Source of the DNA: an uncultured Chloroflexia bacterium
Lineage (GTDB): Bacteria > Chloroflexota > Limnocylindria > QHBO01
Direction: 5' to 3'
Assembly: GCA_963825525.1 (NCBI GenBank)
Contig: CAWGTN010000002.1
Span: forward strand, 1,408,001-1,472,000
DNA length: 64,000 nucleotides
Of this stretch, positions 23,865 through 43,869 are shown piece by piece (positions within the stretch are counted from its first letter, which is position 1; the number at the start of each line of letters is the position of its first letter). Made by a program: the position numbers and the translations under genes. The notes beneath the pieces are model-generated. The model ran no database searches, was not told where the DNA came from, and saw only the letters and a list, made by a program, of their open reading frames with translations.

Positions 23865-24050
23865 ATGGTCAAGCACTTCATCAGCACTCTTCTGGCTCGT
23901 TTCCAGAGCGAGGACGAGGAAGGTCAGACTCTCGTTGAGTACGGTCTGCTTCTCGCCCTCATCGCGATCATCGTGATCGTCGCCCTGCTGTTCCTGGGCC
24001 CGATCGTCAGCCAGCATCTTCAGCAACGTCGCGCGAACCAGCTCACGTAG
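23865..24050 (+). CDS. flp: Flp/Fap (type IVc) major pilin
   Basis: AGGAGG RBS; EEG|QTLVEYGLLLALIAIIVIV prepilin motif; C-terminus appears locally frameshifted. Confidence 0.92.
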   Translation: MVKHFISTLLARFQSEDEEGQTLVEYGLLLALIAIIVIVALLFLGPIVSQHLQQRRANQLT

Positions 24051-26465: not shown

Positions 26466-26487
26466 GCTGATTGGAAGGACGCAGCAC

Positions 26488-27936
26488 ATGTCATTGCTGA
26501 AGCGAATCGAGCGGGCCCGTCCCGCTGCCGAGGGGGAGTCGCCGGAGCCCGCTGTCCCGGCTGCCGTCCCGCCCACGGGCGAGGCTCCCCAGTCGCCGGC
26601 GCCGACACCGGGTGGTTCACCCACGACGCCGCCGCCCGCGGCACCCGCGTCGCGCTTCGCCGGGGCGATGCCGGCTCGGGAATCGTTCCGAGAAGCGAAG
26701 TTCCGCGTCCAGAATCGGCTCATCAACGAGCTGGATCCGAAGCTCGACCTGACGAACCAGGTCGAGGTCCGGCGCCAGATCGAGGAGCTCTTCGGCAAGA
26801 TCGCGGACGAGGAGGGCCTGGCCCTCACCCGTGCCGAGCGCGTCCGAATGCTCGAGCAGATCACGGACGAGATCCTGGGCCTCGGCCCGCTGGAGCCGCT
26901 GCTGCGCGACGAGACCCTCACCGAGGTGATGGTCAACGGGCCACAGCAGGTCTACATCGAGCGCGACGGCAAGCTGGAGCTCACCAACGTGACGTTCCAG
27001 AACGACGAGCACGTCATGAAGATCATTCAGCGCATCATCGCGCCGATCGGCCGTCGCGTGGACGAGTCGAGCCCCATGGTGGACGCCCGCCTGGCCGATG
27101 GCTCCCGCGTGAACGCCATCATCCCGCCGCTCTCGCTGGTGGGACCGGTCATCACGATTCGAAAGTTCTCCGCCACGCCGTTCACGGTCGACGACCTCAT
27201 CCGGTTCGGCACCGCCACCCCGGAGATGTTCGAGTTCCTGGAGGCCTGCGTGAAGGCCCGCCTCAACATCTTCGTCTCCGGCGGTACCGGCTCCGGCAAG
27301 ACGACCATGCTCAACATCCTCAGCTCCTTCATCCCCGATGACGAGCGGATCGTCACCGTGGAGGACGCCGCCGAGCTCCAGCTGCGGCAGGAGCACGTCA
27401 TCACCCTCGAGGCTCGACCGTCGAACATCGAGGGCAAGGGCGCCATCCCGATTCGCGAGCTCGTCCGCAACTCGCTGCGCATGCGGCCCGACCGCATCGT
27501 GGTCGGAGAGTGCCGTTCGGGCGAGGCGCTGGACATGCTCCAGGCCATGAACACGGGCCACGACGGCTCGATGTCCACCGGCCACGCCAACACCCCGCGC
27601 GACATGCTGAGCCGTCTCGAGACCATGGTGCTCATGTCCGGCATGGACCTGCCGTTGAAGGCCATCCGCGAGCAGATCGCCTCGGCGGTGGACCTCATCG
27701 TCCATCAGAACCGCCTGAAGGACGGCCAGCGCAAGATCACGAACATCACCGAGGTCCAGGGCATGGAAGGTGACGTCATCGTCATGCAGGACGTCTTCGT
27801 GTTCGAGCAGACCGACGTGGTCGAGGGCAAGATCCAGGGTCAGCTGAAGCCGACCGGGATTCGCCCGCACTTCGTCGAGCGGTTCGAGACGGCCGGCATC
27901 CACCTCCCGCCGAACATCTTCGGGTCGCCGTTCTGA
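26488..27936 (+). CDS. cpaF: Tad pilus assembly ATPase CpaF/TadA
   Basis: GGTGSGKTT, EDAAEL, LRMRPDRIVVGECR and MNTGHDG. Confidence 0.97.
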   Translation: MSLLKRIERARPAAEGESPEPAVPAAVPPTGEAPQSPAPTPGGSPTTPPPAAPASRFAGAMPARESFREAKFRVQNRLINELDPKLDLTNQVEVRRQIEELFGKIADEEGLALTRAERVRMLEQITDEILGLGPLEPLLRDETLTEVMVNGPQQVYIERDGKLELTNVTFQNDEHVMKIIQRIIAPIGRRVDESSPMVDARLADGSRVNAIIPPLSLVGPVITIRKFSATPFTVDDLIRFGTATPEMFEFLEACVKARLNIFVSGGTGSGKTTMLNILSSFIPDDERIVTVEDAAELQLRQEHVITLEARPSNIEGKGAIPIRELVRNSLRMRPDRIVVGECRSGEALDMLQAMNTGHDGSMSTGHANTPRDMLSRLETMVLMSGMDLPLKAIREQIASAVDLIVHQNRLKDGQRKITNITEVQGMEGDVIVMQDVFVFEQTDVVEGKIQGQLKPTGIRPHFVERFETAGIHLPPNIFGSPF

Positions 27937-28923
27937 TGCTGCCCATCATCATCGCGGGCCTCGCCGCGCTCGCCGTCGTCGTCATCGCCATCGGCATCTC
28001 GATGAGCGCCGGCGGTGGCGCGGTCGCGTCTCGGCTCGAGCGCTACGCCTCGGCAGGTGGCGGTGAGGCGGCCGAAGGTGGCGAGCGCGAGTCGGCGGTC
28101 GTCGCCGGGCTCTCGCGCGTCATGGAGCGGCAGGACCTCTCCACCCGCCTGGCCACCGACCTCGCTCGGGCCGACCTGAAGATGCGGCCGGCCGAGTTCG
28201 TCATCCTCTGGATGGTGACGCCCATCCTCTTCGTCGGCGCCGCGTTCGTCATCGGCATCGTCTTCCCGGGCTTCCAGAACATCGTCGCCCTCGTCGGCAT
28301 CTTCCTGCTTGGCATGTATGCGCCCCGCTGGTACATCAAGCGACGCCAGGCCAAGCGCATCCAGGCGTTCGGCGAGCAGCTGCCGGACACGATCACCCTG
28401 CTTGCGAACTCGCTTCGGGCGGGATCGTCGTTCCTCCAGGGCATCGAGCTCGTCACCCGCGAGGCGCGACCGCCGATCAGCGAGGAGTTCGAGCGCGTCG
28501 TGCGCGACATGCAGCTGGGCATGGCCCTCCAGCCGGCGCTCAACAACCTCGTCCGGCGCGTGGCGTCGGAGGACCTCGAGCTGATGGTCACCGCCATCCA
28601 GATCCAGAGCCAGGTCGGCGGCAACCTCGCCACCGTCCTCGACTCGATCGCGTACACCATCCGCGAGCGGATCCGGATCAAGGGCGAGATCAACACCCTG
28701 ACGGCCATGCAGCGCTACTAGCGGCTACGTCATCACCCTGCTGCCCGGTCGGCTCTGGCCGGGATCCTGTTCCTCATCAGCCCGCGCTACATCACGGCAA
28801 TGCTCGAGACGCCCCCGGAGATGTTCGGGCTGCCGATGGGCGTCATCTTCTTCACGATCGGCCTCATCAGCATGGGCATCGGCTACGTGCTTCATCCGCC
28901 GCATCGTCGATATCAAGGTGTAA
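27936..28923 (+). CDS. tadB: TadB (T2SS-F domain) platform protein (frameshifted C-terminus)
   Basis: QLPD..LANSLRAG and QVGGNLA; follows cpaF. Confidence 0.9.
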
Positions 28924-29849
28924 TGCAGATGCCCCCCGAGATCATCATCGCCATCCTGGCCGCAGGCGCCGTCCTGCTGATCACCTACGGCGTCGCGGCG
29001 CGCCCGATCCGAGGATGCCGTCCAGGCACGCCTCTCGCAGCTCGTGGTCCAGCCGCGCACCGTCGAGGAGATGGAGCTCCAGCAGCCGTTCTACGAGCGC
29101 ATGGTTCGACCCATGATCCAGCGCCTGGCTCGTGCCGGTCGCCGCCAGGAAGGCGGCATGATCCAGCGCGTCGACGCGAAATTGGAGAGGGCCGGCTATC
29201 CCGGCGGCCTGCGCGGCGCCGACTGGATCGGCGTGAAGCTCATGTCGGCCATCGGCTTCGCCGTCGATCTTCTTCCTGCTCGGCACGTTCGTCCTCGGCT
29301 CGCCGGTCCTCGGCCTGCTGATGATCGCGGTCGGCGGGGCGGTCGGCTTCATCGCTCCCGAGTTCTGGCTCGGGCAAGAAGGCCGCCGCCCGATCGATGG
29401 CCATGGTCCTCCAGCTGCCGGACGCCCTCGACCTCCTGACCATCTCGGTCGAGGCCGGCCTGGGATTCGACGCGGCGCTGGCCAAGGTCGTCGAGAAGAT
29501 GGAGGGCCCGCTGGTCGACGAGTTCCGCCAGGCCCTGGCGGAGGTCCGCATGGGTCGTGCCCGACGTGACGCGCTGCGCGACGTCGCCAACCGCGCCGAT
29601 GCCCAGCCGGTGAGCAACTTCGTCGGCGCCATCGTCCAGGCCGAGCAGCTCGGCGTGCCGATCGCCAAGGTGCTCCAGATCCAGTCGAACCAGCTGCGCA
29701 TCGAGCGCCGGCAGCGAGCCGAGGAGGCCGCCGCCAAGGCGCCGGTCAAGATGCTCTTCCCGATGGTCGGCTGCATCTTCCCCACGATCTTCATCGTCAT
29801 CCTCGGGCCGGCGGTCGTGACGGTCATGGGCGGCGGGACCGGGATCTAG
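28923..29849 (+). CDS. tadC: TadC platform protein (frameshifted)
   Basis: LPDALDLLTISVEAGLGFD and AEEAAAKAPVKMLFP. Confidence 0.9.
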
Positions 29850-29852: not shown

Positions 29853-30567
29853 ATGCTTCCGCCGGTCCGTCCGGCCGTCCTGCTGGTCGACGACGACCTG
29901 ACGCTGCTGTCCGTCCTCTCGCGCCGCGTGAGCCGGGCCGGCTACGACGTCCGCACCGCCAACTCGGGTCGTACGGCGCTCAAGCTGCTCGAGGAGTCGT
30001 GGCCGGCGCTGCTGGTGATCGACCTCATGATGCCCGGCATGGACGGCTTCGAGCTGGCCCGCCGGGTGAAGCAGCTCGCCGACCTGCCGATCATCGTCCT
30101 CTCGGCCGTTGACGGCTCGGAGGCCAAGGTCACCGCGCTCGAGCTGTACGCCGAGGACTACGTCACCAAGCCCTTCGACCCGGACGAGCTCGTGGCCCGC
30201 ATCCAGCGCATCCTGCGCCGCGCCTCGGTCGGCAGCCCCCAGATCTCCCTTGCCGATGGCGACGTGGAGGTCGACCTGGCGACCCGGCGCCTCACCACGC
30301 CGGCCGGCACCCATCAGCTGACGCCGACGGAGGCGCGCCTGCTCCAGGTGCTCGCCTCGTCCGTCGACCGAGTGGTGCCGACCGACGAGCTCCTGAGTCG
30401 CGTCTGGACCGACGCCGATGGCGCCGACCCCTCGTACCTGTGGGTCACCGTCCGGCGCCTGCGCCGCAAGCTCGAGAGCCGATCCGGACCGCCCGCAGCA
30501 CCTCATCACCGAGCGAGGCATCGGCTACCGCCTGACCTCGATCGCGACGCCGGCCACCCGGGCCTGA
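29853..30567 (+). CDS. OmpR/PhoB-family response regulator
   Basis: VLLVDDD, DLMMP and TKPF; winged HTH LTPTE..LRRKLE; ERGIGYR read after a frameshift near 30480. Confidence 0.9.
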
Positions 30568-30572
30568 GCGCC

Positions 30573-32050
30573 ATGCCCCAGCTCGGGCCGTGGCTGCGCG
30601 TCGCCGGCGCATTGCTCCTGGCGGTCCTGCCGCCGCTCCTGCTCCTCACAGCCTCGCTCCTGCTGGCGGAAACCGTGCTCACGAACACGGATCCCAGCCT
30701 CATCGCGGGCTTCGTGGTGCTGACGGCCATCGCCTGGTCGCTGGCCCTGGCCATCGTCTACTCCCGCGGACTGGCGGAGGATGTCCGGTCCCTGCTTGCA
30801 CTGGCCGAACGGGGCGATCGAAGTCCCGATGCGTCGCTGGACGACGCCTACCGGCAGCTTGCCGGCACGCTGGACGAGCGCAACCGGCAGGTCGCCGCCC
30901 TGGCCACCGAATCCGCCCGCGTGCCGATTGATGAGTCCCCGCGCATGGTCGTGGCGGCCGTCGTGGCCTCCGTGCGCGAGGTGACCGGGGACGCCACCTG
31001 GCGTTGCGCGGTCCTGGCGTCGGAGAGCGAGGATCTCCTGCCGCCCGGCACCTACCACGCGCCCGCCGATCCGCTGGACGTGGAGCCGATCAGCGAGCTC
31101 GAGCAATGGGCCGCAGTTGCCGGCTCCCAGGAACCTGCCAGCCGCGTCGAGGGGCCATGGGGCGCCTTCCTGGTCGTCGGCCTTGCCGCCACCGACCGCC
31201 TGCGCGCCATCCTCTACGCCCCGGCCGAGGGCCGGCCGCCACCCACGCCCGCGGAGGTGAACCTCCTGACCCTGGTCGGGCAGCACGCGGCCACCGCGCT
31301 GGATCACTCGCTCCTGTACACGCGGGTGCGCAGCCAGGCGGACGAGCTGGACCGCATGGCCGCTGGTGCAGGCGGACTTCCTGCGCGGCGTGACCCACGA
31401 TCTCCAGACACCACTGACCAGCATCGCCGCGCTGGCCACCGAGATGCGCGCAAACCCGGAGATCCCCGAGCAGTCTCGATCCGACCTCGATGGAATCAGC
31501 CACCAGGCCGAGCGGCTGCGACGCATGGTGAGCCAGCTGCTCGTGGCCTCGCGACTCGAGGCCGGCGTCCTGACCGCCGAGCAGGAGGTCTTCGCGCTCC
31601 CGCCCGTGATCGAACGCACGTGGGCGGCACTGCGGGCGGACCGGCCGTTCGAGCTGGTCGTGGACGGGGCTCCGCACCTTGCGGTTGCCGATCCCGATCG
31701 GCTCGAGCAGGTCCTGTGGGCCACGCTGGACAACGCCGTCAAGTACAGCCCGGAGGGCTCTCCGGTCACGGTGACTGTCCGACCGGATGGAGTGGACCAG
31801 CTCACCATCACGATCAGCGATCGCGGGGTCGGCATGGATGCCGAGACCAGCACCCAGGCCTTTGACCAGTTCTTCCGGGCGAGCCAGGCACGCAAGCTGG
31901 CGCCCGGATGGAAGCGGCGTGGGCCTGTATGCCGCGCGGGGTCTGATGGAGACCATGGGTGGATCGGTCGAGATCGAATCCACCCTGGGCACCGGAACCT
32001 CGGTCGTGCTCCACGTTCCCGCCGAGGCCGCCGAGGACACCGGCGCCTGA
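30573..32050 (+). CDS. membrane sensor histidine kinase (2 TM, GAF-like, HisKA, HATPase; frameshifted)
   Basis: VTHDLQTPLT, DNAVKYS, DRGVG and GSGVGL. Confidence 0.88.
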
Positions 32051-32057: not shown

Positions 32058-32088
32058 ACGAGGGCGGTGCTCCGTGCACCGCCCTCGT
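32058..32088. terminator. hairpin between convergent genes
   Basis: Perfect 13-bp stem ACGAGGGCGGTGC/GCACCGCCCTCGT. Confidence 0.65.
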
Positions 32089-32109: not shown

Positions 32110-33115
32110 CTACCTGGTGAGGCCGATGAAGTTCGTCCTCGAGTAGCAGTCGGATCGGTCCGGTTGCACGGCGGCGTGCCGTATCCGGCCGGGACCCCCG
32201 GCAGCGCGTAGAACTCCACGAAGTGGCCCTGGATCTTCGACGCGTGGATGTCGTACGACGTGAGCGAGAACGCGGCCAGGGTAATGACCTCGTAGTTCAG
32301 GCCGGACCCTCCATGCCCGCCGGTCTGCGTCCAGACCGGGATGAGCACGGTCTCGCCGATCAGCGCATCGAGGCACGCCCGCACTTCACTCTTGTTCATG
32401 TTGCCGGGCGCACCCTCCAGCCACAATGGGAACTCCATGGCGGGGTTGTCCGGGGTGCACATGCTGTTCGCAAGGGTGCCGGCGTCAGTTCGCCCCGCTC
32501 CAGGTCAGGAAACCGAAGTTGCCCGGTCCATGGGTGCCCTCGGTCAGCTCGTACTCGATTCCAGCCTGGTAGTCGGAATCGAACGTGGTGATCGGGAGGA
32601 GGATCCCGGACGGGGCTTCATTGAGGATGCCGGAGGTCATCGCCGTCGCGTCGGTCGCGACATCGACCTTCGAGATGCCGACGACCCGCATGAAGAACGT
32701 GTCGGCCGGAGCTCGAGGTATCCACCCGGATCCCCTGCGCGCCGGCCGGGATCGAGCCCGCATTCGTCACCGCACCGAGGTCGATCTCGATTCCGGGGTT
32801 GGCTCCCGGCTTGACGTACTCGGCCGACCAGTCGCAGCCATCGGCGGCTACGCAGCCATTGTTGACCGTGCTGGCCGCGGTCGCCGTGTAGACGTCCGCG
32901 CCGGTGCGCCCGCCATCCAGGTAATGGTCCGCGATGACCTTGGTCCCTGCCATGGAGGCAAGGTCCGCGACGTTCTGCATCGAGCGCCGCTCGCGATAGC
33001 CGACACCCGTGTCGATCACGAGCCCTGCGATGAGGAGGAAAACGATCATTCCGCCGGCCACCATCACCAGGATCTGGCCGGTCTCGTCGTCTCGGTGACG
33101 AAGTCGATTCCACAT
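32110..33115 (-). CDS. tadG: TadG-like minor pilin, cassette 1 (frameshifted)
   Basis: ETG|QILVMVAGG...IDTG...QNVADLASMAG Tad_N motif. Confidence 0.8.
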
Positions 33116-33174
33116 GGAAGTGATTCCTTTCAGGGTTGAGACCGGCCAAAGAGTCCGGAGGTTGTTGCTGTCCA

Positions 33175-33591
33175 TCAGTTGTTCACGATCGCTTCGGATC
33201 GCGCCTCGAGGTGAAGGGTGCCCACGATCTGGCCGATGATCGGCGTGATCATCGAGAGGTCGGCCTTGGCCTCGACGACCAGGATGTCGTCGACCGTGCA
33301 GCCGTAGGCACCCGCCGCGGTGCAGCTCGCGGTGACGGTTGGATTGCGCACCGCCTCGAGGAGGCTGATGACGTGCGCCTCGACCCCGGCGCGGGTCGTG
33401 TCATCGAAGGCACGCGCCTGGACCGATCCGTACCGAGCGCCTTCGCGTGCCCCCTCGGAGAGGGTGTTGTAGGTGTAGACGGCACGGCCCAGGTCGATCA
33501 GGCCGAAGATGATGAGGAAGAAGATCGGGAGAGCGAGGGCAAGCTCGACCATCGCCTGGCCGCGCCGCCCCTCCTTGCGCTTGCGAATCAT
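33175..33591 (-). CDS. tadE: TadE-like minor pilin, cassette 1
   Basis: RG|QAMVELALALP..IDLGR..AREGAR. Confidence 0.88.
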   Translation of the reverse strand: MIRKRKEGRRGQAMVELALALPIFFLIIFGLIDLGRAVYTYNTLSEGAREGARYGSVQARAFDDTTRAGVEAHVISLLEAVRNPTVTASCTAAGAYGCTVDDILVVEAKADLSMITPIIGQIVGTLHLEARSEAIVNN

Positions 33592-34664
33592 CAGTTGTCC
33601 ACCGTGATCGTTGTGGTGAGGCACGGGCGCAACAGCCCCGCGGTAATGCTCTGCGAGACGACCGTGTAGTCATTGCCCGGCGGTCGCACGGGCGTGAAGT
33701 TCACGGCTGAGAAGCCCGCGCTCGACCATCTTCCCTGGGCTGCGGTGATCGGCACACCCGTGAGTACCGGGACCGTGCACTGGGCGGCCGGCGTGGCAGT
33801 CGGTGACGCGCTCGGCGACGGAGAAGGGGAGGGAGAGCCCGGGCTGGGCGTCGGCGTCGCGGTGGGCACCGGCGTCGGGCTGGGAGTCGGGCTGGGAGTC
33901 GGCGTCGACATCACCGTGCTGGAGACCAGGATCGACTGGGTCAGACACGACCCAACCGTCCCGGCCGGTACGCTCTGCCACACGATGTTCTGCCCGTTGC
34001 CACCATTCGTCGAGAGATTCGCCGCAGAGAATCCCGCGATGGTCGCCCAGACATTCTCGGCGCCGCTGATCTTGGTGGGTCCGGTCGTGAAGTTCGGGAC
34101 CGTACAACTCGACGGTGCCGGCGTTGACGTCGGCGCGGTTGTCGGAATCGGGACCGTGCCGGAACCGGTCTCGAACGAGGTGACGACCACGGCCGTCGAG
34201 GACGAGCTCAGTGTCAGGGTCCCGCCCACCAGTGAACTGATCAGCGGGGTGACGAGCGTGAACGGCGTCTTGCTGGCGACGTAATACAGGTCGCCGTCCT
34301 CGCAGTCCGCAAGCGTCTTGCCCGCACCAGTGAAGACGGTGGTGCCGGGTGCGAAGCACTTGGCAACGAAGCTCTGAAGGGTCAGGCCGTTCAGCTCGAC
34401 CTCGACCCGCGACTCGACGTTATGCGGGTCGACACAGTCAGCCGTGGTCGTTGCACACTCGGGCTCGCGCGCACCGAAGAAGGCCCCTTCCTTGACGGCA
34501 TTCTCGAGGGCCACCGAGGAGAAATAGGCCCTGCCGAGGTCCACGGTGCCGAGCACCAGGACCAGCATGACCGGGAGCAGAAGTGCGAACTCGACGAAGC
34601 TCTGGCCCCGTGCGGATCGCACCCTGGCCGTGAGCTGGGTCAGCGTCGTTCGGATCGAATTCAA
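33591..34664 (-). CDS. tadE: TadE-like minor pilin with two PASTA-like domains and Pro/Thr/Ser linker, cassette 1
   Basis: RG|QSFVEFALLLP; two CTVP...AGF...QS..AG repeats; TTG start inferred. Confidence 0.82.
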   Translation of the reverse strand: MNSIRTTLTQLTARVRSARGQSFVEFALLLPVMLVLVLGTVDLGRAYFSSVALENAVKEGAFFGAREPECATTTADCVDPHNVESRVEVELNGLTLQSFVAKCFAPGTTVFTGAGKTLADCEDGDLYYVASKTPFTLVTPLISSLVGGTLTLSSSSTAVVVTSFETGSGTVPIPTTAPTSTPAPSSCTVPNFTTGPTKISGAENVWATIAGFSAANLSTNGGNGQNIVWQSVPAGTVGSCLTQSILVSSTVMSTPTPSPTPSPTPVPTATPTPSPGSPSPSPSPSASPTATPAAQCTVPVLTGVPITAAQGRWSSAGFSAVNFTPVRPPGNDYTVVSQSITAGLLRPCLTTTITVDN

Positions 34665-34694
34665 GGGGAACCTGCAAATGCGTGATCGATCCCC

Positions 34695-34727
34695 AACGTA
34701 TGGGGCCGACCTTGCGGGGTGCCTTGC
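34695..34727 (-). promoter_or_regulatory. cassette-1 promoter motif GCAAG-N7-GCAAGGT-N8-TACGTT
   Basis: Same spacing as three other copies; 30 nt upstream of the start codon. Confidence 0.72.
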
Positions 34728-34895
34728 GAAGGTCGGAACGATCGGCGTCTGCTGGCAGTACGAAGGTCCCGGCGGTCCGCACCGGACCGACCCGCATGCC
34801 ATCGGAGGCCACAACAGGCCCCGATCACGTGGTGACGCGGCGCACCGGGGCGGACGAGACGCCGGGTCGGCGGACCCGGGACTTCGGTACTGCCT

Positions 34896-34928
34896 GTAAG
34901 CAGTACGGCAAGGTCAATCCGGTAGGTT
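34896..34928 (+). promoter_or_regulatory. cassette-2 promoter motif GTAAG-N7-GCAAGGT-N8-TAGGTT
   Basis: 31 nt upstream of GTG 34960. Confidence 0.72.
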
Positions 34929-34959
34929 GCGAACTGAGACCCGAGATTGAGATTCCGCC

Positions 34960-35943
34960 GTGCACGCCCTACGCAACCTCGCGCGACGCAGCTCGCGCGC
35001 CCAGGCCCTTGCCGAATTCGCCCTCGTCCTGCCCATCATCATCCTGCTTCTCGCGATGGCGATCGACCTTGGCCGCGTGTTCTACGGATGGGTGTCCATC
35101 CAGAACGCGGCCCGCGTCGGCGCGTCCTACGCGGCGTCAAACGCTGATGCGTGGGAGTCGCCGGCGGACGCGACACGGCAGGCCCGCTACGCGACCCTGA
35201 TCCAGAATGACCTCCAGGCACTGAACTGCGCGCTCGGGGCCGTCCCGCCACCGGCCTTCGATGACCTCGACGCCGATGGAACCTACGACACCGGCGAACC
35301 GGTCGCCGTCGCGCTGGACTGCGAGTTCAGCCTCATCACGCCGATCGGCCAGACAATCCTCGGGCCAGTGAACCTCGGAGGGGAGGCGACGTACCCCGTT
35401 CACTACACGGTCGTCACCGCGCTTCCGTCGCCACCTCCACCGCCGCCACCACCGACGTGCACGGTTCCCGGCACCGTCGGCCAGTCCCGGAACACCGCGC
35501 GAAGCCTGTGGACCGGAGCGAGCTTCCAGTCCGGCAATTTGATCGAGACCACGAACGGCAACTTCACAGTCGCCACCCAGAGCCAGACGGCGGGGGCGTC
35601 GATCCCGTGCACGTCATCCATGACGATTTCCCCGGCGGCCGGACCGACGCCGACTCCGGCGGGATGCACCAAGCCGGTGGCCCAGTTCACCGGCACGCCG
35701 ACAGTCGGTAAGTCGACGCTGAACGTTCAGTTCACGGATCAGTCGACGAGCGCAGGTTGCCCGATCCTGTCGTGGAGCTGGAACTTCGACCCAGGGTCCT
35801 CCAGCCTTCAGAGCCCGAGCCACGGGTTCGTCTGGGACGGCAATGGACAGTCGACGAAATTCAAGGTCACCCTCACCGTCACGAACGCCGCCGGGTCTGA
35901 TGTGGAAACAAAGAACAACTACATCCAGGCAAACAAGCCATGA
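34960..35943 (+). CDS. tadE: TadE-like minor pilin with PASTA-like and PKD domains, cassette 2
   Basis: RA|QALAEFALVLP (Ala rather than Gly at -1); poly-Pro linker; CTVP; PVAQF..VQFTDQS..WSWNF (PKD). Confidence 0.85.
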   Translation: MHALRNLARRSSRAQALAEFALVLPIIILLLAMAIDLGRVFYGWVSIQNAARVGASYAASNADAWESPADATRQARYATLIQNDLQALNCALGAVPPPAFDDLDADGTYDTGEPVAVALDCEFSLITPIGQTILGPVNLGGEATYPVHYTVVTALPSPPPPPPPPTCTVPGTVGQSRNTARSLWTGASFQSGNLIETTNGNFTVATQSQTAGASIPCTSSMTISPAAGPTPTPAGCTKPVAQFTGTPTVGKSTLNVQFTDQSTSAGCPILSWSWNFDPGSSSLQSPSHGFVWDGNGQSTKFKVTLTVTNAAGSDVETKNNYIQANKP

Positions 35944-36386
35944 CGCTGATGCGCGGCCGTGATCGCGGTCAGACGATGGTCGAGCTGGCCCTCGTGCTGC
36001 CGCTCCTCATCCTGCTCATCGCCGGGATCTTCGACTTCGGCCGTGCGATTTACGGCTACAACACCGTCATCAATGCGTCGCGCGAGGCCGCACGCGTGGC
36101 CATCGTTCACCAGACGGCCGGCACCATCGAGCAGCGGGCAGTGGACCACGCCGTAGCCCTCGGACTCAGCGCGACCGATGTCTCCATCGACTACCGCACC
36201 GCCGCCGCTCCGGAAACACCGGGCTCATGCGACTCGAGGCTCGGAACCCCCCAGATCGTGGGATGCACCGCCGTTGTTCGTGTCGACTACACCTATGAAG
36301 CCTCGATTCCGATCATCACCGCCCTGGTCGGGTCGATCGACCTGGCCGGCGAAACACGATTCCCCGTGGAGCACAACGCTCCATGA
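35940..36386 (+). CDS. tadE: TadE-like minor pilin, cassette 2
   Basis: RG|QTMVELALVLP..FDFGR..SREAAR. Confidence 0.88.
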   Translation: MTLMRGRDRGQTMVELALVLPLLILLIAGIFDFGRAIYGYNTVINASREAARVAIVHQTAGTIEQRAVDHAVALGLSATDVSIDYRTAAAPETPGSCDSRLGTPQIVGCTAVVRVDYTYEASIPIITALVGSIDLAGETRFPVEHNAP

Positions 36387-37585
36387 CACCCAGGAGACTG
36401 AACCCGATGGACCGATACTTCCGCTCAGGCACCGGCTCGCGATCGCGTGAGGGGCAGGTGCTCGTCATCGTGGCCGCGGGCATGTTCGTGCTCATCGCCA
36501 TGGTCGGGCTGATCATCGACGGCGGCAATGCCCTGGCTCAGCAGCGCCGCGCGCAGAACGCGGCCGATGGGATTGCCATGGCTGGCACCGCGGTCATCCA
36601 GGACTACCTCAGCGACGCGGCAACGCCGCCGACTGCGGGCGACGTGGGGTGCGCCGTTGAGACCGCAGCAGACGCACACGAGATCGACCTCGAGAAGGCC
36701 GAGTTCACGGACTTCAACGGCACCATCGTCGGCCTCGTGCCCGCGTGCGGGTCCGGTGCGGGGATTCCGGCGGGGAGCCAGGGCGTCAAGGGCTCGAGCA
36801 CCGAGGACTTCGAGACGTTCCTCATGCGTGCGGTCGGTTTCGGCACCATGACGACGAAGGCGAATGCCACCGCTGTTGTGGGAACACCGTCCGGCGTGTG
36901 CCCGGCCAGTGCCGGGTGCGGCGTGCTCCCGGTCACCTTCCCGCGCACGATCGACACCTGCGACGGGACGAACACCGGGATCGTCGGCGAGGACGAGTGG
37001 GAGATACTGGACGAGGACGCGGTGCTGGATAGCAGCAATCTCGCCATCGTTCCGCTCTGCAAGAAGGCACCGGGCGCCACCGGCTGGCTGGACTTCGGAT
37101 GCGGCAACCTCGCAGACCACATCACGAACCCGTGCAACCAGTACATCAACATCCCGGCATGGCTTCACACCAGCCCGGGCAACCCGAACTGCTGCGAGAA
37201 CCAGCTGAATGCGTACGCGGGCTCGTCGCCCGGCGTTGCCGAAACGGCCGACCAGGTCCTCTACGTCCCGATCCACGACAACACGTGCGGCACCAAGCCG
37301 GCGGACTCCGACCCCGTCTGCCCGGGCGGCAATTGGACCGGTGGAGGTGACCTCCTCCATTACCACATCCCGTATTGGGTCGGATTCAAGCTCGATGGCG
37401 CATTCACCCAGGGGAGTGACGTCGAGTGCAACGAACTCCCGGGCACGCCGTTTTCGGGTGGCAACGGGGCCACCGGCTGCCTGAAGGGATGGTTCGTCTC
37501 GAAGGTCACCGCCCCCGGACCAATCAGTACCGTGGTGATCAACCCCGGAGATCCGGTGGCCCTGGCCATCGCCCTGATCGACTAG
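36383..37585 (+). CDS. tadG: TadG-like Cys-rich minor pilin, cassette 2
   Basis: EG|QVLVIVA..IDGG..AQNAADGIAMAG. Confidence 0.83.
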   Translation: MTPRRLNPMDRYFRSGTGSRSREGQVLVIVAAGMFVLIAMVGLIIDGGNALAQQRRAQNAADGIAMAGTAVIQDYLSDAATPPTAGDVGCAVETAADAHEIDLEKAEFTDFNGTIVGLVPACGSGAGIPAGSQGVKGSSTEDFETFLMRAVGFGTMTTKANATAVVGTPSGVCPASAGCGVLPVTFPRTIDTCDGTNTGIVGEDEWEILDEDAVLDSSNLAIVPLCKKAPGATGWLDFGCGNLADHITNPCNQYINIPAWLHTSPGNPNCCENQLNAYAGSSPGVAETADQVLYVPIHDNTCGTKPADSDPVCPGGNWTGGGDLLHYHIPYWVGFKLDGAFTQGSDVECNELPGTPFSGGNGATGCLKGWFVSKVTAPGPISTVVINPGDPVALAIALID

Positions 37586-37845
37586 CCGCGCCGGGCCGGG
37601 CCAAAATCCGCCCGGCCACTCGGCAGCCCAGTCTCTCCGTGCGCCGCGCAACCCATTTTGGGTGGCGCGGCGTTCTGGCGTCCCGCGGCGATTCGCCACC
37701 GCTAACCCTGCGAGACACCTCAGATCGCCAGGTCCCCTAACAAGATTCAGTGTTGTGCGTTGTCGCAGAGCGTGTACTGTCACAACGGATACCGCCGAAC
37801 TTCGTTAGGGTCCGTGTTGCCACAATGCACCGAGATTCGTGGTTT

Positions 37846-37878
37846 GCAAGGTCAGCTGCAAGGTTGAATGCCTACATT
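37846..37878 (+). promoter_or_regulatory. cassette-3 promoter motif GCAAG-N7-GCAAGGT-N8-TACATT
   Basis: 8 nt upstream of ATG 37887, a near-leaderless arrangement with no RBS. Confidence 0.72.
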
Positions 37879-37886
37879 CGCGAGCG

Positions 37887-38774
37887 ATGACACGAGAATC
37901 TGAACCCGGCGCGACATCGGCCGCCCGCCGCGGCCAGGCCCTGGTCGAGCTTGCCCTGATCGCCCCTGTCCTGCTGCTCCTGCTCATCGGAGCGATTGAC
38001 CTGGGCCGCGTCTGGCAGTCACAGATCACCATCAACAATGCCGCCCGCGAAGGCGCGATGGAAGGGATCTTCCAGCCGAACTCATTCATCGCCGGTACGG
38101 CGTGCACCTCGGCCAACCAGGACTCGAACCGGATCATGTGCCGGGTCGTGAACGAGGTACGCGACTCGAGCATCACCGTGACCCCGGCAGACGTGGCGAA
38201 GTCCTGCAGCCCGTCGTGCACGCCGGGCAGCGTGGGCGCCCCGAGCACGTTGACGGTGACCGTTACGGGCCACTTCTCCCTGCTCACGCCGCTCATGGCC
38301 GTCTTCACCGGTGGCCAGGACATCACCCTCACGGCGGCCGCAGACGCGACGATTGCCATGACCCCGACCGGCGGCCCGGTCGCGACCCCCAGCCCGAGTC
38401 CGAGTCCGACGCCGACGCCGACGCCGACGCCGACTCCGACAGGCAGCCCGGGCCCGTCACCGACGCCAACCGCAACGGCAAGCCCAACGCCCCCACCGCA
38501 ACCGTGTGTGGCCCCGGTTGCGAATTTCAGCGTCAGTCCGGCCACGGGCAAGAAGAAGAAGACCGACTTCGCATTCACCGATTCTTCGACGAACATGGCG
38601 AACCCGGCCTGCAACCGGATCTGGTCGTGGAACTTCGGCGACGGAACCGGTGCTTCCTCGTCGCAGAACACCGTCCATCAGTACGACTCGGCGGGCACCT
38701 ACACGATCACCCTGTCGGTATCCAACAGCGCCGGCACCTCGACGTTCCAGCGGTCGGTCATTGTCACGCAGTAA
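37887..38774 (+). CDS. tadE: TadE-like minor pilin with (PT)n linker and PKD domain, cassette 3
   Basis: RG|QALVELALIAP; PVANF..FTDSS..WSWNFGDG..HQY..AGTYTITL. Confidence 0.87.
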   Translation: MTRESEPGATSAARRGQALVELALIAPVLLLLLIGAIDLGRVWQSQITINNAAREGAMEGIFQPNSFIAGTACTSANQDSNRIMCRVVNEVRDSSITVTPADVAKSCSPSCTPGSVGAPSTLTVTVTGHFSLLTPLMAVFTGGQDITLTAAADATIAMTPTGGPVATPSPSPSPTPTPTPTPTPTGSPGPSPTPTATASPTPPPQPCVAPVANFSVSPATGKKKKTDFAFTDSSTNMANPACNRIWSWNFGDGTGASSSQNTVHQYDSAGTYTITLSVSNSAGTSTFQRSVIVTQ

Positions 38775-39210
38775 GTCGTTGCGCGCCAAGCCAGCGCACA
38801 GCGAGAAGGGCCAGGCGATGGTCGAGTTCGCCCTCACGGTCGTCATCTTCATCGGCCTCCTGCTGGGCGTGCTCGATTTCGGCCGAGCGATCTTCATGTC
38901 GAACGGCGTCGCCGAGGCGGCGCGCGAGATCGCCCGCGTTGCGAGCGTGCATCCGGGGAACCCGATCTCGAACCCATCAGCCGATACCCAGCAGGTGATC
39001 GCGGGGCAGCGCAGCATCATCTTCGATCTCGCGAACCCGACGATGACGTGCGTCGACATCACCGGCCAGCCAGCTGCCACCCCGACCGGTGCCTGCCTTC
39101 CCGGCAATTGGGTGAAGGTCGAGATCCACGCTCCCTACAGCCCGGTGACACCAATCTTCAACCTGATGGCCATCGACCTCGAGTCGACCAGCAGCGTGCA
39201 AATACCGTGA
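38761..39210 (+). CDS. tadE: TadE-like minor pilin, cassette 3
   Basis: KG|QAMVEFAL..LDFGR..AREIAR; start approximate. Confidence 0.85.
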   Translation: MSRSKSLRAKPAHSEKGQAMVEFALTVVIFIGLLLGVLDFGRAIFMSNGVAEAAREIARVASVHPGNPISNPSADTQQVIAGQRSIIFDLANPTMTCVDITGQPAATPTGACLPGNWVKVEIHAPYSPVTPIFNLMAIDLESTSSVQIP

Positions 39211-39230
39211 AGTCAGAGGTACGCCCAGCC

Positions 39231-40170
39231 ATGCATCCCGAATTTGCCGATGGAGACCGAGAGCGCGGGCAGATCCTCGTCATCTTTGCTCTCGCGCTCG
39301 TCGCGATCGTCGCCATGGTGGGCCTGGTGATCGACGGCGGTTCGGCCTTCGCCCAGCGCCGTTCACAGCAGAACGGTTCGGACCTTGCGGCCATGGCCGG
39401 CGCGAACACCTACCTGCTTACGAACAGCAACGCGTCGACGATCAGTGCGGCCCGAGAGGTTGCCCGCCAGAACGGGTGGGAGCACGGCGTCGGCGGTGTC
39501 GTCGTCAATGTGAGCATCGACACGTCCAACGGGGCGGCCGTCACGGTCGAGGTCGACGCCCCACACGACAACTACTTCGGCGGCATCGTCGGGTTCGACA
39601 CGATGGATGTTGGCACCACTGCCACCGCGGTTGGTGGTTTCCCCGATACCGTGGAGGGCGCGGCGCCGATGATCTTCAGCATCGACGCATTCAACGCCGA
39701 TGGTTCGCCGAAAGCAGCCTACGGGAACTCCGGCGCCCCATTTGCGTTCGGCGAGACGAACGGAGACGTGCCCACAGGACCTGGTGATCTTGCGTGGACG
39801 AACTACGGGACCGGCAATGTCAATACGAACGACGTCCGACAGATCATCCGAGGCAACCTCGTCATCAATAAGACGCTCGACATTCGGTGAGTACATCGGT
39901 CAGCACAACAACGGCAATCACACCGCGCTGTTCGGCGAGGTGAACTCCTACCTGGCGGGCATGGACGTCCCGGTCCCCGTCGTTGATCACAACGGCAATT
40001 TCCAGGGGTGGGCTACGTTCCACATCGTCTCGGCGTCGGGTGGCAGCGCGAAGGATGTCGTCGGGTATTTCAAGAGCTCGTTCGTGAGCCAGCGGCTGTC
40101 GATCGGCGGCTGCGCGGCAAATGACTGCCCGCGCTACCTGGGTTCGTACGTCCTCAAGCTCACCGACTGA
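39231..40170 (+). CDS. tadG: TadG-like minor pilin, cassette 3 (frameshift near 39885)
   Basis: RG|QILVIFAL..IDGG..QNGSDLAAMAG. Confidence 0.83.
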
Positions 40171-40197
40171 CGCCAAGGGAACAGTCCCGACAACGCC

Positions 40198-40225
40198 AAA
40201 GCCGGTCGAGGAATCGACCGGCTTT
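40198..40225 (+). terminator. Rho-independent terminator after cassette 3
   Basis: AAAGCCGGTCGA-GGAA-TCGACCGGCTTT perfect stem. Confidence 0.8.
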
Positions 40226-40432
40226 CGCTTGCGTCCGTCTTGCTCAGGGAGCACGCAAGCCAACGCACGCCGCACCAGGTTTGTTACTGGCAGCGACGTG
40301 CGCCACAAGTACTGCGACGGACCCCACGCGACCCGACCGCCGCGCCACAGACCCCACGCGTCGCGAGCTCGTTTGGCCGTCGATTTTCCTATCGCTTGCT
40401 CGGTACAGGCTGCCTACGGTGCACCTCAGATG

Positions 40433-40465
40433 GCAAGCAAGACCGCAAGGTGGCGGGCATAGCCT
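40433..40465 (+). promoter_or_regulatory. cassette-4 promoter motif GCAAG-N7-GCAAGGT-N8-TAGCCT
   Basis: 29 nt upstream of GTG 40495. Confidence 0.72.
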
Positions 40466-40494
40466 CAGGGCATCTACCTTTTCAGGAGCCAGGC

Positions 40495-41118
40495 GTGCAG
40501 ACGATCGTTCGATTTCGGAGCCAGCGAACCCGGGACGGTGTCCGGTCCGAGCGTGGACAGTCCGCCGTCGAGTTCATCCTGGTCTTCCCGATCTTCATCC
40601 TGATCATCATCGGCCTCATGGAGTTCAGCCTGGCGTTCAACGCGCTCATCGGCGTGAACTTCGCCAGCCGCGACGCGGCACTCCTGGCCGCCGAGGCCGC
40701 CGCCGACGCGGGCGCCGATTGCGTGATCCTGAAGAGCGTGGAGTCGGACATCAACGCGCCGGCCGACCGCGACCGAATCACCGAGGTCCGCGTCTACTGG
40801 GCCACCGACACCGGGGCCATGATGCCCGGCAACCCGGTCAACGTGTACCGCCGGACGGGCAGCACCACCTGCACGACGCCCGGCGGATCGATCATCACGG
40901 TTCCGTACTCCCTGGTCGGTGTGGCCGGCTACCCGGTGAGCATCCGCTGCGACGTCATCGGCGGCTGCGGCGGCTCCCATGACACGGTCGACACGATTGC
41001 CGTCCAGGTCCGGTACACCCACGTCTGGGCCACGCCGCTGGCCCGGCTCGTGTCGCTGGGCGGCACAGGGTTCTCGTTCGAGCACACCAACGCCATGCGC
41101 ATGGAGCCATCGCTGTGA
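40495..41118 (+). CDS. tadE: TadE-like minor pilin, cassette 4
   Basis: AGGAG RBS; RG|QSAVEFILVFP..ASRDAA. Confidence 0.85.
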   Translation: MQTIVRFRSQRTRDGVRSERGQSAVEFILVFPIFILIIIGLMEFSLAFNALIGVNFASRDAALLAAEAAADAGADCVILKSVESDINAPADRDRITEVRVYWATDTGAMMPGNPVNVYRRTGSTTCTTPGGSIITVPYSLVGVAGYPVSIRCDVIGGCGGSHDTVDTIAVQVRYTHVWATPLARLVSLGGTGFSFEHTNAMRMEPSL

Positions 41119-41705
41119 GAGCCCTTCTCGCGCACCGCTACCGGCGCGACGCTCGCGGCCAGTCGCTGGTCGAGATGATCCTCATCCTCCCCGTGCTGCT
41201 CATGCTCACCATGGGCACGCTCGAGTTCGGCTTCGCGTTCGATCATCACATCACCCTCGAGTACGCGAGCCGCGAGGGCGCCCGCACCGGAGCTGCCCTC
41301 TCGAACGGTGCCGGCGACGCAACCCGCTGCGCAGCCATCGATCCGCAGATCATTGCTGCGGTCCAGCGCGTCCTCGACAGCCCGAGCTCATCGGTCGACC
41401 TGGCGGAGGTCCCCGAGGTTCGGATCTTCCGTGCCGGAACCAACGGGCAGGAGCTGGGACCCGTGAACCGATGGCGGTACGCCCCCGGCGCCGGCCCGAC
41501 CGTTGACGGGCAGCGACTCGACTTCGTCGAGGTCTCTGCCAGCTGGCCGGCGTGCTCGCGCCTCAGCCAGCCCAACCCGGATTCGATCGGGGTCAGCCTG
41601 ACCTACACCTACCGCTTCCAGACGCCGATGACCGGCCTGCTCGGAATGGCATCTATCAACATGGGCGACAAGACGGTCATGCCGCTCGCGCCCACGGACT
41701 ATTGA
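41115..41705 (+). CDS. tadE: TadE-like minor pilin, cassette 4
   Basis: RG|QSLVEMILILP..ASREGAR. Confidence 0.87.
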   Translation: MRALLAHRYRRDARGQSLVEMILILPVLLMLTMGTLEFGFAFDHHITLEYASREGARTGAALSNGAGDATRCAAIDPQIIAAVQRVLDSPSSSVDLAEVPEVRIFRAGTNGQELGPVNRWRYAPGAGPTVDGQRLDFVEVSASWPACSRLSQPNPDSIGVSLTYTYRFQTPMTGLLGMASINMGDKTVMPLAPTDY

Positions 41706-41715
41706 GGTCCCGCAC

Positions 41716-43869
41716 ATGACCCCGTCCGCCATCGCGCGCTTCATCCGCCGTCGTCAGCCACCGGTTGTCGAGGGAGGTGCTGAGCGCGCGAGCCGCGGCC
41801 AGATCCTGGTCCTGTTCGCGCTCCTGCTCACCATCCTCATCGGCTTCTCGGCCTTCGTGGTCGACATTGCCTGGATCTGGAGCAACCAGCTCAAGGTCCA
41901 GCGTGCGGCGGACGCAGCGGCACTTGCCGGCGTGGTCAACCTTCCCGGCCAGGTCACGGTGGCATTCAACGACGCGTGGGCCGAGTCGCGAAAGAACGGA
42001 TATCGCAATGGCGTGGGCGGGGTGGTCGTGACCCCGTCGCAGGATCCCGACAACCCTCGGCGCATGCGCGTTCGCGTGTCCGCGCCGGTGAGGACGTTCT
42101 TCATGGGCCTGTTCGGCTGGAGCCAGGTGACCGTCACCCGCGACGCAAGCGCCGACTTCGTGCTCCCGGTGCCGATGGGCAGCCCGCTGAACTACTACGG
42201 CGTCGGCGACTTCCGCACCCTCGTCACCGGATCAGTGACCGATACCGGCGAGCGGGCGGCCACGACGGCGGTCACCCCGAACGGTTGGACGACACCGAAC
42301 GGCGCGCATGCGTCCGGGGGGAGCACCCACGCCAACAACGCGACGGGCGCCAGCCAGGGATACGGGAACTTCGGCATCACGCTGCCCGCCGGCTCCGTGG
42401 TCCGAGGCATCGAGGTGCGGGTCGATGGCCGCTCGACCGACACGGCCGGATGCGCCATCGGCGTTTCGCTATCGGCCAATGGTGGGACGAGCTGGACCGC
42501 TCAGAAGACCCAGAGCCTGACGGGCGCGTTCGCCGTGAGGCGTCTTGGGGGCGCCACCGACATGTGGGGCGGTGTCTGGCTGCCGGCAGGAGTCACGAAC
42601 GGCTCGCTGGTGGTCCGCGTGACCGACGTCGATCCTGGGGCCGCCTGTGTCGACAGCGCTCGCACCGACCTTGATTACCTGAGCGTGAAGGTCTTCTACA
42701 CGGGTCCGCCCACCCAGCAGAACCGGGTGATCACCGCGCCGGACGGCACGGTGCTCGCGAGCCAGGGCTTCTGGGGTGCGATCGAGGGCCAGGGCAGCAA
42801 CCGATCGACCGGCGATGCCTACGCCACCGGCTACAACCCGAATCCCACCTTGAACGCCGACTACGACGCGCGAGGGTACGACTACACCCTGGAGCTGCCG
42901 GCAGGCGGCAAGGTGTCCATCTTCGACCCCACCTTCTGCGCGACGTCCGACGGACCGGGCGGCGGCCACTACGGGTCCGGCGACCACTGGCTGGGCGCAG
43001 CGACGCCCGTGTCCACCTACTTCCAGCTGTGGAACTCGAACGGCACCACGTTCCGGAGCGATGACACGCTGGTGGCCGCGAGTGGCTCCCTGTTCCAGAA
43101 CGAGTACCAGGCCGACCTCATCACCGGCGCGAACTTCAGCGACGGTGCAGAGCCGACGAACCCGACGGACTGCGGCGAGGGCCTGATCACGAACCCGGGC
43201 CAGGGCGGCGCGTACCACAACAAGTGGTGGCAGATGGCCAGCGGACTGGCCGCCGGCGAGTATCGGCTCCAGGTGACGACCACCAATCCCAGTAATCCGA
43301 ACGACAACTGGGACGAGAGCTTCGAGAACATGTGGTCGATCCTGGTCGAGGGCGGCGGCAAGCCGCACATCTTCGGCTCCGGGAAGATGGTGTCCTACGC
43401 CAACATCGAGGCCGGACAGCAGACGTTCTATCTCGCCCAGATCGACCGACAGGCGGGAGCCGGCAAGACGGTCGAGATCAAGCTCTTCGATCCGGGCGAC
43501 GTCGGTCAGAAGGCGTGGATGCAGATCCTTTCGCCGGACGGCAACGCGTACAACCCGGTGACGTTCAGCTACACCGCAGATAACGGGCGATCCGGCACCA
43601 ACGTCACGTGCATCCAGACGTATGGCGGTGGCGGGCCGTCGGCGCCATCCGGCTGCACCAACCTCACGAGCGGTGGATCCCTCTACCAGAACTCGTGGAT
43701 CACGGTCCAGGTGCCACTCTCGTCGAACTACGGGGCGAGCGGCCTCCAGCCGGCGGGCGAGACCGAATCCGGCTGGTGGAAGATCCGGTACACCGTGAAC
43801 AGTGGCAACGACACCACGACCTGGGAGGTCACGATCCGCGGCAACCCGGTCCGCCTGGTCGTTCCCTGA
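41716..43869 (+). CDS. tadG: large TadG-like tip pilin/adhesin (717 aa), cassette 4
   Basis: RG|QILVLFA..VDIA..QRAADAAALAG; long Gly/Thr/Trp-rich beta-type C-terminal region. Confidence 0.85.
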   Translation: MTPSAIARFIRRRQPPVVEGGAERASRGQILVLFALLLTILIGFSAFVVDIAWIWSNQLKVQRAADAAALAGVVNLPGQVTVAFNDAWAESRKNGYRNGVGGVVVTPSQDPDNPRRMRVRVSAPVRTFFMGLFGWSQVTVTRDASADFVLPVPMGSPLNYYGVGDFRTLVTGSVTDTGERAATTAVTPNGWTTPNGAHASGGSTHANNATGASQGYGNFGITLPAGSVVRGIEVRVDGRSTDTAGCAIGVSLSANGGTSWTAQKTQSLTGAFAVRRLGGATDMWGGVWLPAGVTNGSLVVRVTDVDPGAACVDSARTDLDYLSVKVFYTGPPTQQNRVITAPDGTVLASQGFWGAIEGQGSNRSTGDAYATGYNPNPTLNADYDARGYDYTLELPAGGKVSIFDPTFCATSDGPGGGHYGSGDHWLGAATPVSTYFQLWNSNGTTFRSDDTLVAASGSLFQNEYQADLITGANFSDGAEPTNPTDCGEGLITNPGQGGAYHNKWWQMASGLAAGEYRLQVTTTNPSNPNDNWDESFENMWSILVEGGGKPHIFGSGKMVSYANIEAGQQTFYLAQIDRQAGAGKTVEIKLFDPGDVGQKAWMQILSPDGNAYNPVTFSYTADNGRSGTNVTCIQTYGGGGPSAPSGCTNLTSGGSLYQNSWITVQVPLSSNYGASGLQPAGETESGWWKIRYTVNSGNDTTTWEVTIRGNPVRLVVP

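Follow-up and report, generated by a model that had tools for sequence, protein, structure and literature searches.

A single-motor Tad locus with an array of minor-pilin triplets, predicted to provide alternative pilus tips, in an uncultured Limnocylindria bacterium

The closest described counterpart of the locus analysed here is the Kil system of Myxococcus, in which, according to the passages of the original paper available, four paralogous trimers of TadE/F/G-like proteins (KilL/KilM/KilN, Tips 1–4) serve one Tad-like pilus, as shown genetically (Herrou et al. 2025, PMC12075869). Any single tip is enough for polymerisation in that system, TadEFG tips are proposed to customise Tad pili generally, and the choice among tips by one Tad machine is stated there to be unknown. 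Here we describe a stretch of 64,000 nucleotides (the window; positions 1,408,001 to 1,472,000 of contig CAWGTN010000002.1, assembly GCA_963825525.1) from an uncultured bacterium of the Chloroflexota class Limnocylindria, in which one Tad core and a two-component regulator/kinase pair are followed by four paralogous TadE–TadE–TadG triplets. The interchangeable-tip principle is already published, and this locus is a clear variant of it rather than a new principle. We put a probability of roughly 70% on the reading that one pilus machine is served here by alternative priming trimers that each come to lie at the tip, with their supply set by the adjacent two-component system apart from that of the fibre.

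The likeness to Kil, as far as the consulted passages describe that system, extends to one machine and one Flp with at least four three-gene clusters, predicted heterotrimers on the N-terminal helix α1N, variable C-terminal domains and many cysteines. Several paralogous triplets per one machine and one major pilin, the Kil-type arrangement, are found in this genome (2.58 Mb in 4 contigs, 91.84% complete). The two systems differ in phylum, and neither a secretin (no match to PF00263) nor an export gate of type III secretion (T3SS; no match to PF00771 over the cut-off) nor an adapter Flp was found in this 91.84%-complete assembly, in contrast to Kil. Here a single variable site behind the core gathers all four triplets, accessory domains occur on the lead TadE as well as on TadG, and a shared promoter element with a neighbouring regulator is present, of which those passages contain no description; predation is not indicated here. 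The main text of PMC12075869 contains no occurrence of 'Chloroflex', PKD or PASTA. As such, the locus appears to work like the Kil tip system without being a member of the myxococcal predation system, whose secretin and needleless T3SS partner were not found in the incomplete genome.

Compared with the canonical monoderm Tad/Flp locus (flp, cpaB, tadZ, tadA, tadB, tadC and one tadE/F/G set), the core shows the same gene set and order and likewise has no secretin, whereas here five triplets and a TadE–TadG–cpaB set accompany one motor and the peptidase is unlinked. Among type IVa pili, the PilY1 clusters of Myxococcus reportedly constitute alternative priming/tip sets. The type IVa minor-pilin sets of Synechocystis, in the portions of the report consulted, also provide one machine with several priming/tip complexes, but they belong to other pilin families than these Tad proteins and are shown to give different filaments (PMC13759059). 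Tad pili have been seen in the cultured Chloroflexota Litorilinea aerophila (PMC13319060, consulted in part). Within the limited literature collection searched, no paper on Limnocylindria pili was found, nor, judging by titles, one on a tad or two-component promoter of the lineage.

The four triplets had been proposed in a first-pass annotation made from the letters alone, and a Pfam scan of 34 window proteins at Pfam's own cut-offs bears them out, with TadE (PF07811) in eight genes and Tad (PF13400) in four: 34664–32110 on the minus strand, divergent from the second triplet, then 34960–37585, 37887–40170 and 40495–43869 (Table 1). The inter-triplet gaps, put at about 300 bp, measure 295, 301 and 324 bp, and the prepilin cleavage motif is indeed present in 12 of 12 genes, as G/A-Q-X3-E in TadE and, lacking the glutamate, as G-Q in TadG. 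Within triplets, overlaps or distances of at most 10 bases are seen at five of the eight junctions. The single flp and cpaB-to-tadC core stands as described (23865–29849), but a regulator/kinase pair (29853–32050), omitted from that description, intervenes before the triplets; similarly, gene order and coordinates of the triplet genes hold, while the frameshifts that split TadG1 and TadG3 had been overlooked. The core comprises a CpaF/TadA ATPase, a TadB and TadC platform, CpaE/TadZ and CpaB/RcpC, several of them frameshifted in the assembly, together with a short Flp carrying a G-X4-E-Y motif and one A24 prepilin peptidase.

The whole genome holds 11 TadE and 6 TadG genes. Close homologues carry the names Candidatus Limnocylindrales or Limnocylindria, which makes Limnocylindria the probable class. 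Secretion ATPase (over the cut-off), Flp and A24 peptidase (PF01478; C2:670.7 kb, unlinked) are single-copy, and the only two T2SSF genes (PF00482) both lie at this locus. All tip sets therefore use one motor, unless a second is absent from the assembly: other Tad motors serving the cassettes, which the first-pass annotation had named as grounds for abandoning its proposal, were sought genome-wide through ATPase and T2SSF matches and rejected, as no second motor, platform, Flp or peptidase was found. The count of four tip cassettes is correct for the window and too low for the genome, which has five triplets and one TadE–TadG set. The fifth, orphan TadE–TadE–TadG triplet lies at C2:490.5–493.3 kb (L001:10524–13338) behind a promoter element scoring 35.1. 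Its TadG contains 18 cysteines and matches DUF7305 weakly, its arrangement recurs in several relatives, and a second cpaE-like gene stands 4.5 kb away, with dprA/comM-like genes farther on. The TadE–TadG–cpaB set is located at C2:170.8–174.2 kb (L002:5814–9210) on the minus strand between uvrB and coaE/mutM, and has no promoter element; its TadE–TadG pair recurs in L022 and L042. The second CpaB, tied to one tip in this way, could be a dedicated alignment ring.

Across the class, TadG matches occur in 55 of 61 genomes, often several each (a tally that includes the unpublished genome G034). In the genus, 18 of 35 genomes have an ATPase match, exactly one in 14 of those; G002 (96% complete) pairs one ATPase with six Tad matches, and G017 one with five. 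Synteny and cassette number had been put forward as a check in the first-pass annotation: the site between the kinase gene and hpf holds triplets in 11 other genus genomes, in numbers from 1 to 3 (some sites being cut by contig ends), and four is the maximum seen. Order and orientation vary as well. When the pilin domains of the lead TadE, the second TadE and TadG are clustered separately, the three clusterings agree with an adjusted Rand index of 0.87–0.91 (60 of 61 collected triplets), and rank correlations among the three genes are 0.55–0.61 over 60 triplets, kin not being independent. The five triplets of this genome fall into five separate clusters, with a similarity of 0.38–0.83 to their foreign orthologues and of at most 0.20 among themselves. 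On these values, we reject an origin by recent tandem duplication; the array is instead a gathering of old tip types. By these sequence comparisons, the triplets are old, distinct types that are inherited as units. Among the relatives, G009 has two complete Tad core loci (L005–L008), one with two flp genes; two flp genes are also found in G017, and G025 (L017) shows a partial tandem repeat of cpaB–tadB that may be an assembly artefact.

A structural model of the second triplet is consistent with a cognate heterotrimer. The TadE 2a pilin domain, TadE 2b and TadG2, each with an 18-row alignment, give a complex score of 0.74 against 0.01 for the best of three controls; of 157 solved complexes 116 pass the score's mark, as do 2 of 215 mismatched pairs, a rough guide for a three-chain job with self-made alignments. 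At least 84% of contacts agree between runs, and the pLDDT (predicted local distance difference test) of the partners is at least 75. Contacts involve the three N-terminal helices, as in a heterotrimer built on an α1N bundle (modelled for one of the five triplets), and additionally TadE 2a residues 128–141 against the C-terminal strands of TadG2 (residues 349–376), which is a possible basis of partner choice. Part of the score may be owed to likeness with solved pilin bundles.

The accessory domains differ among the triplets. The PKD domains claimed in the first-pass annotation exceed the Pfam threshold in TadE 2a and TadE 3a. The PASTA-like domains claimed alongside them are recovered by fold and by a profile grown from relatives only, which finds two in TadE 1a and one in TadE 2a but no such domain in the remaining 15 of this genome's 17 minor pilins. 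Pfam PASTA (PF03793) has no match at E≤0.01 in the window proteins; among relatives, 4 of 18 lead TadE proteins exceed its cut-off. Modelled with AlphaFold2 (pLDDT 83), TadE 1a is best matched in Foldseek by the PASTA domains of PknB and penicillin-binding proteins, the ten best rows all being PASTA-bearing entries (best E 2.8e-4, probability 1.00), and on this modelling evidence the fold is PASTA. TadG4, confirmed at its claimed 717 residues, is modelled with a pLDDT of 91.9 and a predicted template modelling score of 0.78, and its jelly-roll at about residues 172–330 resembles carbohydrate-binding modules (CBMs; best Z 11.0, root-mean-square deviation 3.0 over 126 aligned residues; CBM32 at Z 10.5–10.7). 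Because the best alignment covers at most 68% of the region searched in 64 of the 120 homologues listed, and because the conserved columns jump from residue 163 to 350 with the exception of one cysteine, the CBM-like domain looks like an optional insert. Its likeness to CBMs would be one of shared fold and no guide to a ligand. Searching the insert sequence against solved structures and a protein atlas returned nothing usable, and Foldseek with the whole TadG4 model returned diffuse β-sandwich matches only; residues 335–717, barely probed, have no fold assigned.

All five triplets share a promoter element that always faces the triplet, with a period-12 direct repeat (G-C/T-AAGGT and GCAAGGT, five bases apart) and, eight bases beyond it, TANNNT. 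A matrix was built from 29 sites of genus relatives and none from this genome, although the window belonged to the set from which the seed consensus was taken, and the ranking is therefore not fully blind. The genome's five best positions under this matrix are those of the five triplets (38.4, 35.1, 30.3, 28.4 and 23.0; next 16.6), while flp, the regulator and the TadE–TadG–cpaB set have no such element in this genome-wide ranking. As flp lacks it, tip supply would be controlled apart from the fibre. The corresponding pattern, written after seeing its matches, occurs 4 times in the window and in none of 100 shuffles, and across 60 genomes it gives 77 matches in 32 genomes against 4 for a reversed control; 39 of the 69 matches inspected (8 of the 77 were not fetched) precede a minor pilin. 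A consensus promoter/terminator scan, uninformative for activator-type promoters, returned no promoter and one terminator-like site inside a gene.

In pho-box-type promoters of OmpR/PhoB regulators, a tandem direct repeat takes the place of the −35 hexamer, its distance to a σ70-type −10 box being constant, and the two-component genes lie adjacent. The arrangement here is alike, with a repeat at fixed distance from a −10 box before the candidate target operons and two-component genes next to them, but the period is 12 bp, 8 nt separate the repeat from the −10 box and the site is putative. Regulator homologues (E≤1e-45) are found in 17 of 35 genomes of family f1, 11 of 11 of f3 and 0 of 13 of f2, f4 and f5, and the promoter pattern in 28 of 35, 3 of 11 and 0 of 13, respectively. 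In 20 loci of family f3, picked for regulator or TadG matches, pilins are found in 17, a weaker element precedes the first pilin in 11 of these, and a regulator homologue stands just upstream in 9, often directly before tip sets remote from the motor. A search for regulator-related loci returned one true orthologue (L043) among 80 loci. By co-occurrence and adjacency, the OmpR-family regulator is the likely activator of the triplet promoters.

Several observations accompany this regulatory region. A second, palindromic element (G-G/T-AC, four bases, GT-A/C-C) occurs in 20 of 39 upstream regions of the genus, at an offset constant within a tip type; two copies (34758–34769 and 34879–34890) lie in the divergent spacer of triplets 1 and 2, and the full GTAC-N4-GTAC palindrome is not enriched in the genome (7 found, 11 expected). 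An XRE-family helix-turn-helix regulator (48023–48430, minus strand) with several GTAC words upstream is a candidate reader of this second element; the tip promoter element precedes its orthologue in G018 and a paralogue in G029. A protein of 150–165 residues with an N-terminal hydrophobic stretch, a GMGWGxIA motif and no Pfam family over the cut-off lies directly behind the promoter element at L135:5250–5726 (minus) and 16 other loci, and is a candidate feedback partner of the two-component system; it was not found in this genome. At L167–L171 (family f3, genus g11) a second OmpR-type regulator immediately precedes a tip set, no kinase intervening, some 15 kb from the regulator–kinase pair.

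In the mechanism we propose, a secretin-less Tad machine with one CpaF, one TadB/C platform, one Flp and one peptidase would be primed by any of several minor-pilin heterotrimers. Each triplet would form a separate transcription unit, and the three prepilins would be cut at the G/A-X4-E or G-Q site, bundle through their N-terminal helices and nucleate Flp polymerisation, thereby placing the trimer at the pilus tip, where it would display PASTA-fold, PKD or CBM-like domains or cysteine-rich heads. The five triplets would be read through the shared activator-type promoter, most likely by the OmpR-family regulator. We infer prepilin processing, the priming role and the location at the tip from the biology of Myxococcus Kil and type IV pili, the regulator–promoter link from co-occurrence and adjacency, and likewise what the tips bind. 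The earlier proposal of interchangeable tip complexes on one pilus is partly supported by the single machine, the inheritance of triplets as units, the model of the triplet 2 trimer and the promoter of each triplet; the differing adhesive specificities that it assigns to the tips are putative.

A number of points weigh against this picture. The same nearest foreign neighbour is shared by all three genes in 17 of 60 triplets, by two of the three in 28 and by none in 15, and this weak agreement means that co-inheritance holds at the level of types. Completeness of 91.84% leaves room for a second motor outside the assembly. Adapter Flps like KilK/KilO were not found, Pfam, tblastn and a motif scan all giving one Flp in the incomplete genome. 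Modelling covered the cognate combination of triplet 2 only, which bears on cognate preference. TadG1 and TadG3 are broken in the assembly. Among the sequencing runs listed as holding this DNA, none is of RNA. The promoter element is not tip-specific: 17 of the 69 inspected matches precede the 150–165-residue protein, 8 precede other genes and 5 lie at contig ends. In 13 genus genomes the motif occurs without a regulator match, including G018 and G035 at 94–95% completeness; an ATPase match is also absent from 11 of the 13, which points to missing assembly, but G035 is 94% complete. Finally, OmpR/PhoB boxes have a period of 10–11 bp, and the 12 bp found here is longer.

The alternatives rank, from strongest to weakest, as functional specialisation, a mixed pool, decay and recombinational switching. 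The first holds that the triplets prime functionally different filaments, for example for DNA uptake and for attachment, as with the minor-pilin sets of Synechocystis. Tad is the sole type IV filament found in this genome, which also encodes ComEC and a ComEA-like protein; comF follows the array at a distance of 480 bp, and translations place dprA- and comM-like genes within 6–9 kb of triplet 5. Transformation of Micrococcus is said to be Flp-dependent. In Synechocystis, two priming sets work on one type IV machine (PMC13759059, seen in part). Against such a division, all five triplets stand under one promoter element, with no hint of separate programmes, and no tip domain matched a DNA-binding fold; moreover, comF–hpf and dprA–comM are common housekeeping neighbourhoods. 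Functional specialisation is unlikely as a replacement for alternative tips on one pilus, with which it is compatible and not mutually exclusive.

A slightly less probable explanation is that the 12–17 minor pilins act as a combinatorial pool or assemble into a single larger complex, mixing across triplets and co-regulated for simultaneous supply. The shared promoter element suggests simultaneous expression, the N-terminal helices are 35–58% alike across triplets, and an extra TadG stands behind a triplet in some relatives (L005, L023, L031–L033). However, the site in relatives holds 1–3 triplets of differing types, so there is no fixed large complex; the three genes of a triplet keep their partners across species, and the triplet 2 model has contacts beyond the shared helices.

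It is improbable that the repertoire is decayed, with TadG1 and TadG3 true pseudogenes and only some triplets functional. Both genes are frameshifted (three and two frames), but the same is true of the core genes cpaB, cpaE, tadB and tadC and of the regulator and kinase genes, and frame switches appear in 15 of 67 conserved stretches tested genome-wide (a rough count that includes overlapping frames). Identity to the intact orthologues of G002 stays at 62–78% past the breaks. Contigs of other samples, from 4 runs and 3 studies, lack one base at the core breaks 24763, 28722 and 30477–30479, the one-base difference at 24763 recurring in 4 of 4 runs, and the contig pieces that span the TadG1 and TadG3 breaks contain gaps, their places along the pieces not being displayed. 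From these comparisons, the TadG1 and TadG3 frameshifts are probably sequencing error.

A shufflon-like switch, inverting or shuffling cassettes before one promoter to express one tip at a time, might be read into the inverted triplet 1 and into the differing order and orientation of triplets, DUF192 and comF among species, but shufflon or phase variation is rejected as very improbable. Each triplet comes with a promoter element of its own, and the repeats shown include neither one that would bound an invertible segment nor a flanking recombination site. All 4 tyrosine-recombinase matches are outside the window, and G002 likewise has its type-1 triplet in inverted orientation behind the kinase. 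None of the 15 joints shown, out of 94, changes strand, and in other samples contig pieces connect kinase–TadG1 and TadG4–DUF192 as in this assembly.

Table 1. Features of the Tad core, the regulator/kinase pair and the four triplets (window coordinates).
Feature	Position	Strand	Basis and remarks
flp	23865..24050	+	sole Flp-type major pilin found in genome; PF04964 E 1.3e-5, below cut-off; single genome-wide match
cpaB/rcpC, frameshift-split	24275..25185	+	SAF domain; synteny in relatives
cpaE/tadZ, receiver + MinD-like, frameshifted	25226..26465	+	domain matches
cpaF/tadA motor ATPase	26488..27936	+	sole genome ATPase over cut-off
tadB + tadC platform genes, both frameshifted, boundary near 28920	27936..29849	+	genome's only two PF00482 matches
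OmpR/PhoB-family response regulator, candidate triplet-promoter activator	29853..30570	+	Response_reg + Trans_reg_C; no named subfamily cut-off reached
Histidine kinase, frameshifted; two closely spaced N-terminal hydrophobic segments, GAF, HisKA, HATPase	30573..32050	+	domains by Pfam; topology read from sequence
13-bp perfect hairpin between convergent kinase and TadG1 ends	32058..32088		read from sequence; not called by terminator scan
TadG1, ~325 aa in relatives, three frames here	32110..33142	-	PF13400; 62-68% identity to intact G002 orthologue over residues 1-312
TadE 1b, short	33175..33591	-	PF07811; start overlaps TadE 1a stop
TadE 1a, pilin domain + two PASTA-fold domains on Pro/Thr linkers	33591..34664	-	Pfam, profile, fold
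Triplet 1 promoter element, period-12 direct repeat then -10 box	34695..34726	-	matrix score 30.3
Triplet 2 promoter element	34897..34928	+	matrix score 28.4
TadE 2a, pilin + PASTA-like + PKD	34960..35943	+	Pfam, profile
TadE 2b, short	35940..36386	+	Pfam; start overlaps 2a stop
TadG2, 400 aa, 14 Cys in mature chain	36383..37585	+	Pfam; trimer model with 2a and 2b
Triplet 3 promoter element; -10 box ends 9 nt before ATG	37847..37878	+	matrix score 38.4, genome's best; transcript predicted leaderless
TadE 3a, pilin + PKD	37887..38774	+	Pfam
TadE 3b, short	38779..39210	+	Pfam; start codon read from sequence
TadG3, ~310 aa, two frames here	39231..40170	+	PF13400; 69-78% identity to intact G002 orthologue
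12-bp perfect hairpin ending in T residues, terminator-like, after triplet 3	40198..40225	+	read from sequence; not called by scan
Triplet 4 promoter element	40434..40465	+	matrix score 23.0
TadE 4a	40495..41118	+	Pfam
TadE 4b	41115..41705	+	Pfam; start overlaps 4a stop
TadG4, 717 aa; CBM-like jelly-roll ~172-330, large beta-rich C-terminal part	41716..43869	+	Pfam, AlphaFold2 model, fold search

Elsewhere in the window, a genus-conserved pair of a NarL-family response regulator and a HisKA_3 kinase (21433–23419) lies directly upstream of flp, so that with the OmpR/kinase pair 3′ of tadC the Tad core is flanked by two different two-component systems. A run of membrane proteins at 12565–21517, with many frameshifts, resembles GT87/GT-C glycosyltransferases in its translations, and is preceded by a phosphonate-type cluster with a phosphoenolpyruvate mutase and decarboxylase at 2328–5700. 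A 299-residue protein at 46883–47782 (minus strand), which has no Pfam match, resembles a sortase-anchored surface protein: it is rich in tandem ESPSATPT repeats, and an LPNT motif precedes the hydrophobic stretch at its C-terminus.

The contributions of this analysis are a gene count across a near-complete genome, the ranking of the promoter element over that whole genome, the unit inheritance of tip types and the trimer model. Multi-tip Tad pili are thereby extended from predatory myxobacteria to a secretin-less Chloroflexota machine, with a lineage-wide catalogue of tips (PASTA-fold, PKD and CBM-like), and the sharply defined shared promoter with its neighbouring regulator makes tip control directly testable. 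More speculatively, and on balance doubtful as a whole, an intramembrane-sensing kinase and the OmpR-type regulator might gate piliation at priming by switching on the library of five trimers and not the fibre, promoter strength and the GTAC-N4-GTAC-like operator might choose the tip, and PASTA- and CBM-like tips might let these small-genome soil Chloroflexota sense the walls or glycans of other cells by contact. If true, this joint reading would amount to a programmable tip-choice circuit in an abundant uncultured lineage.

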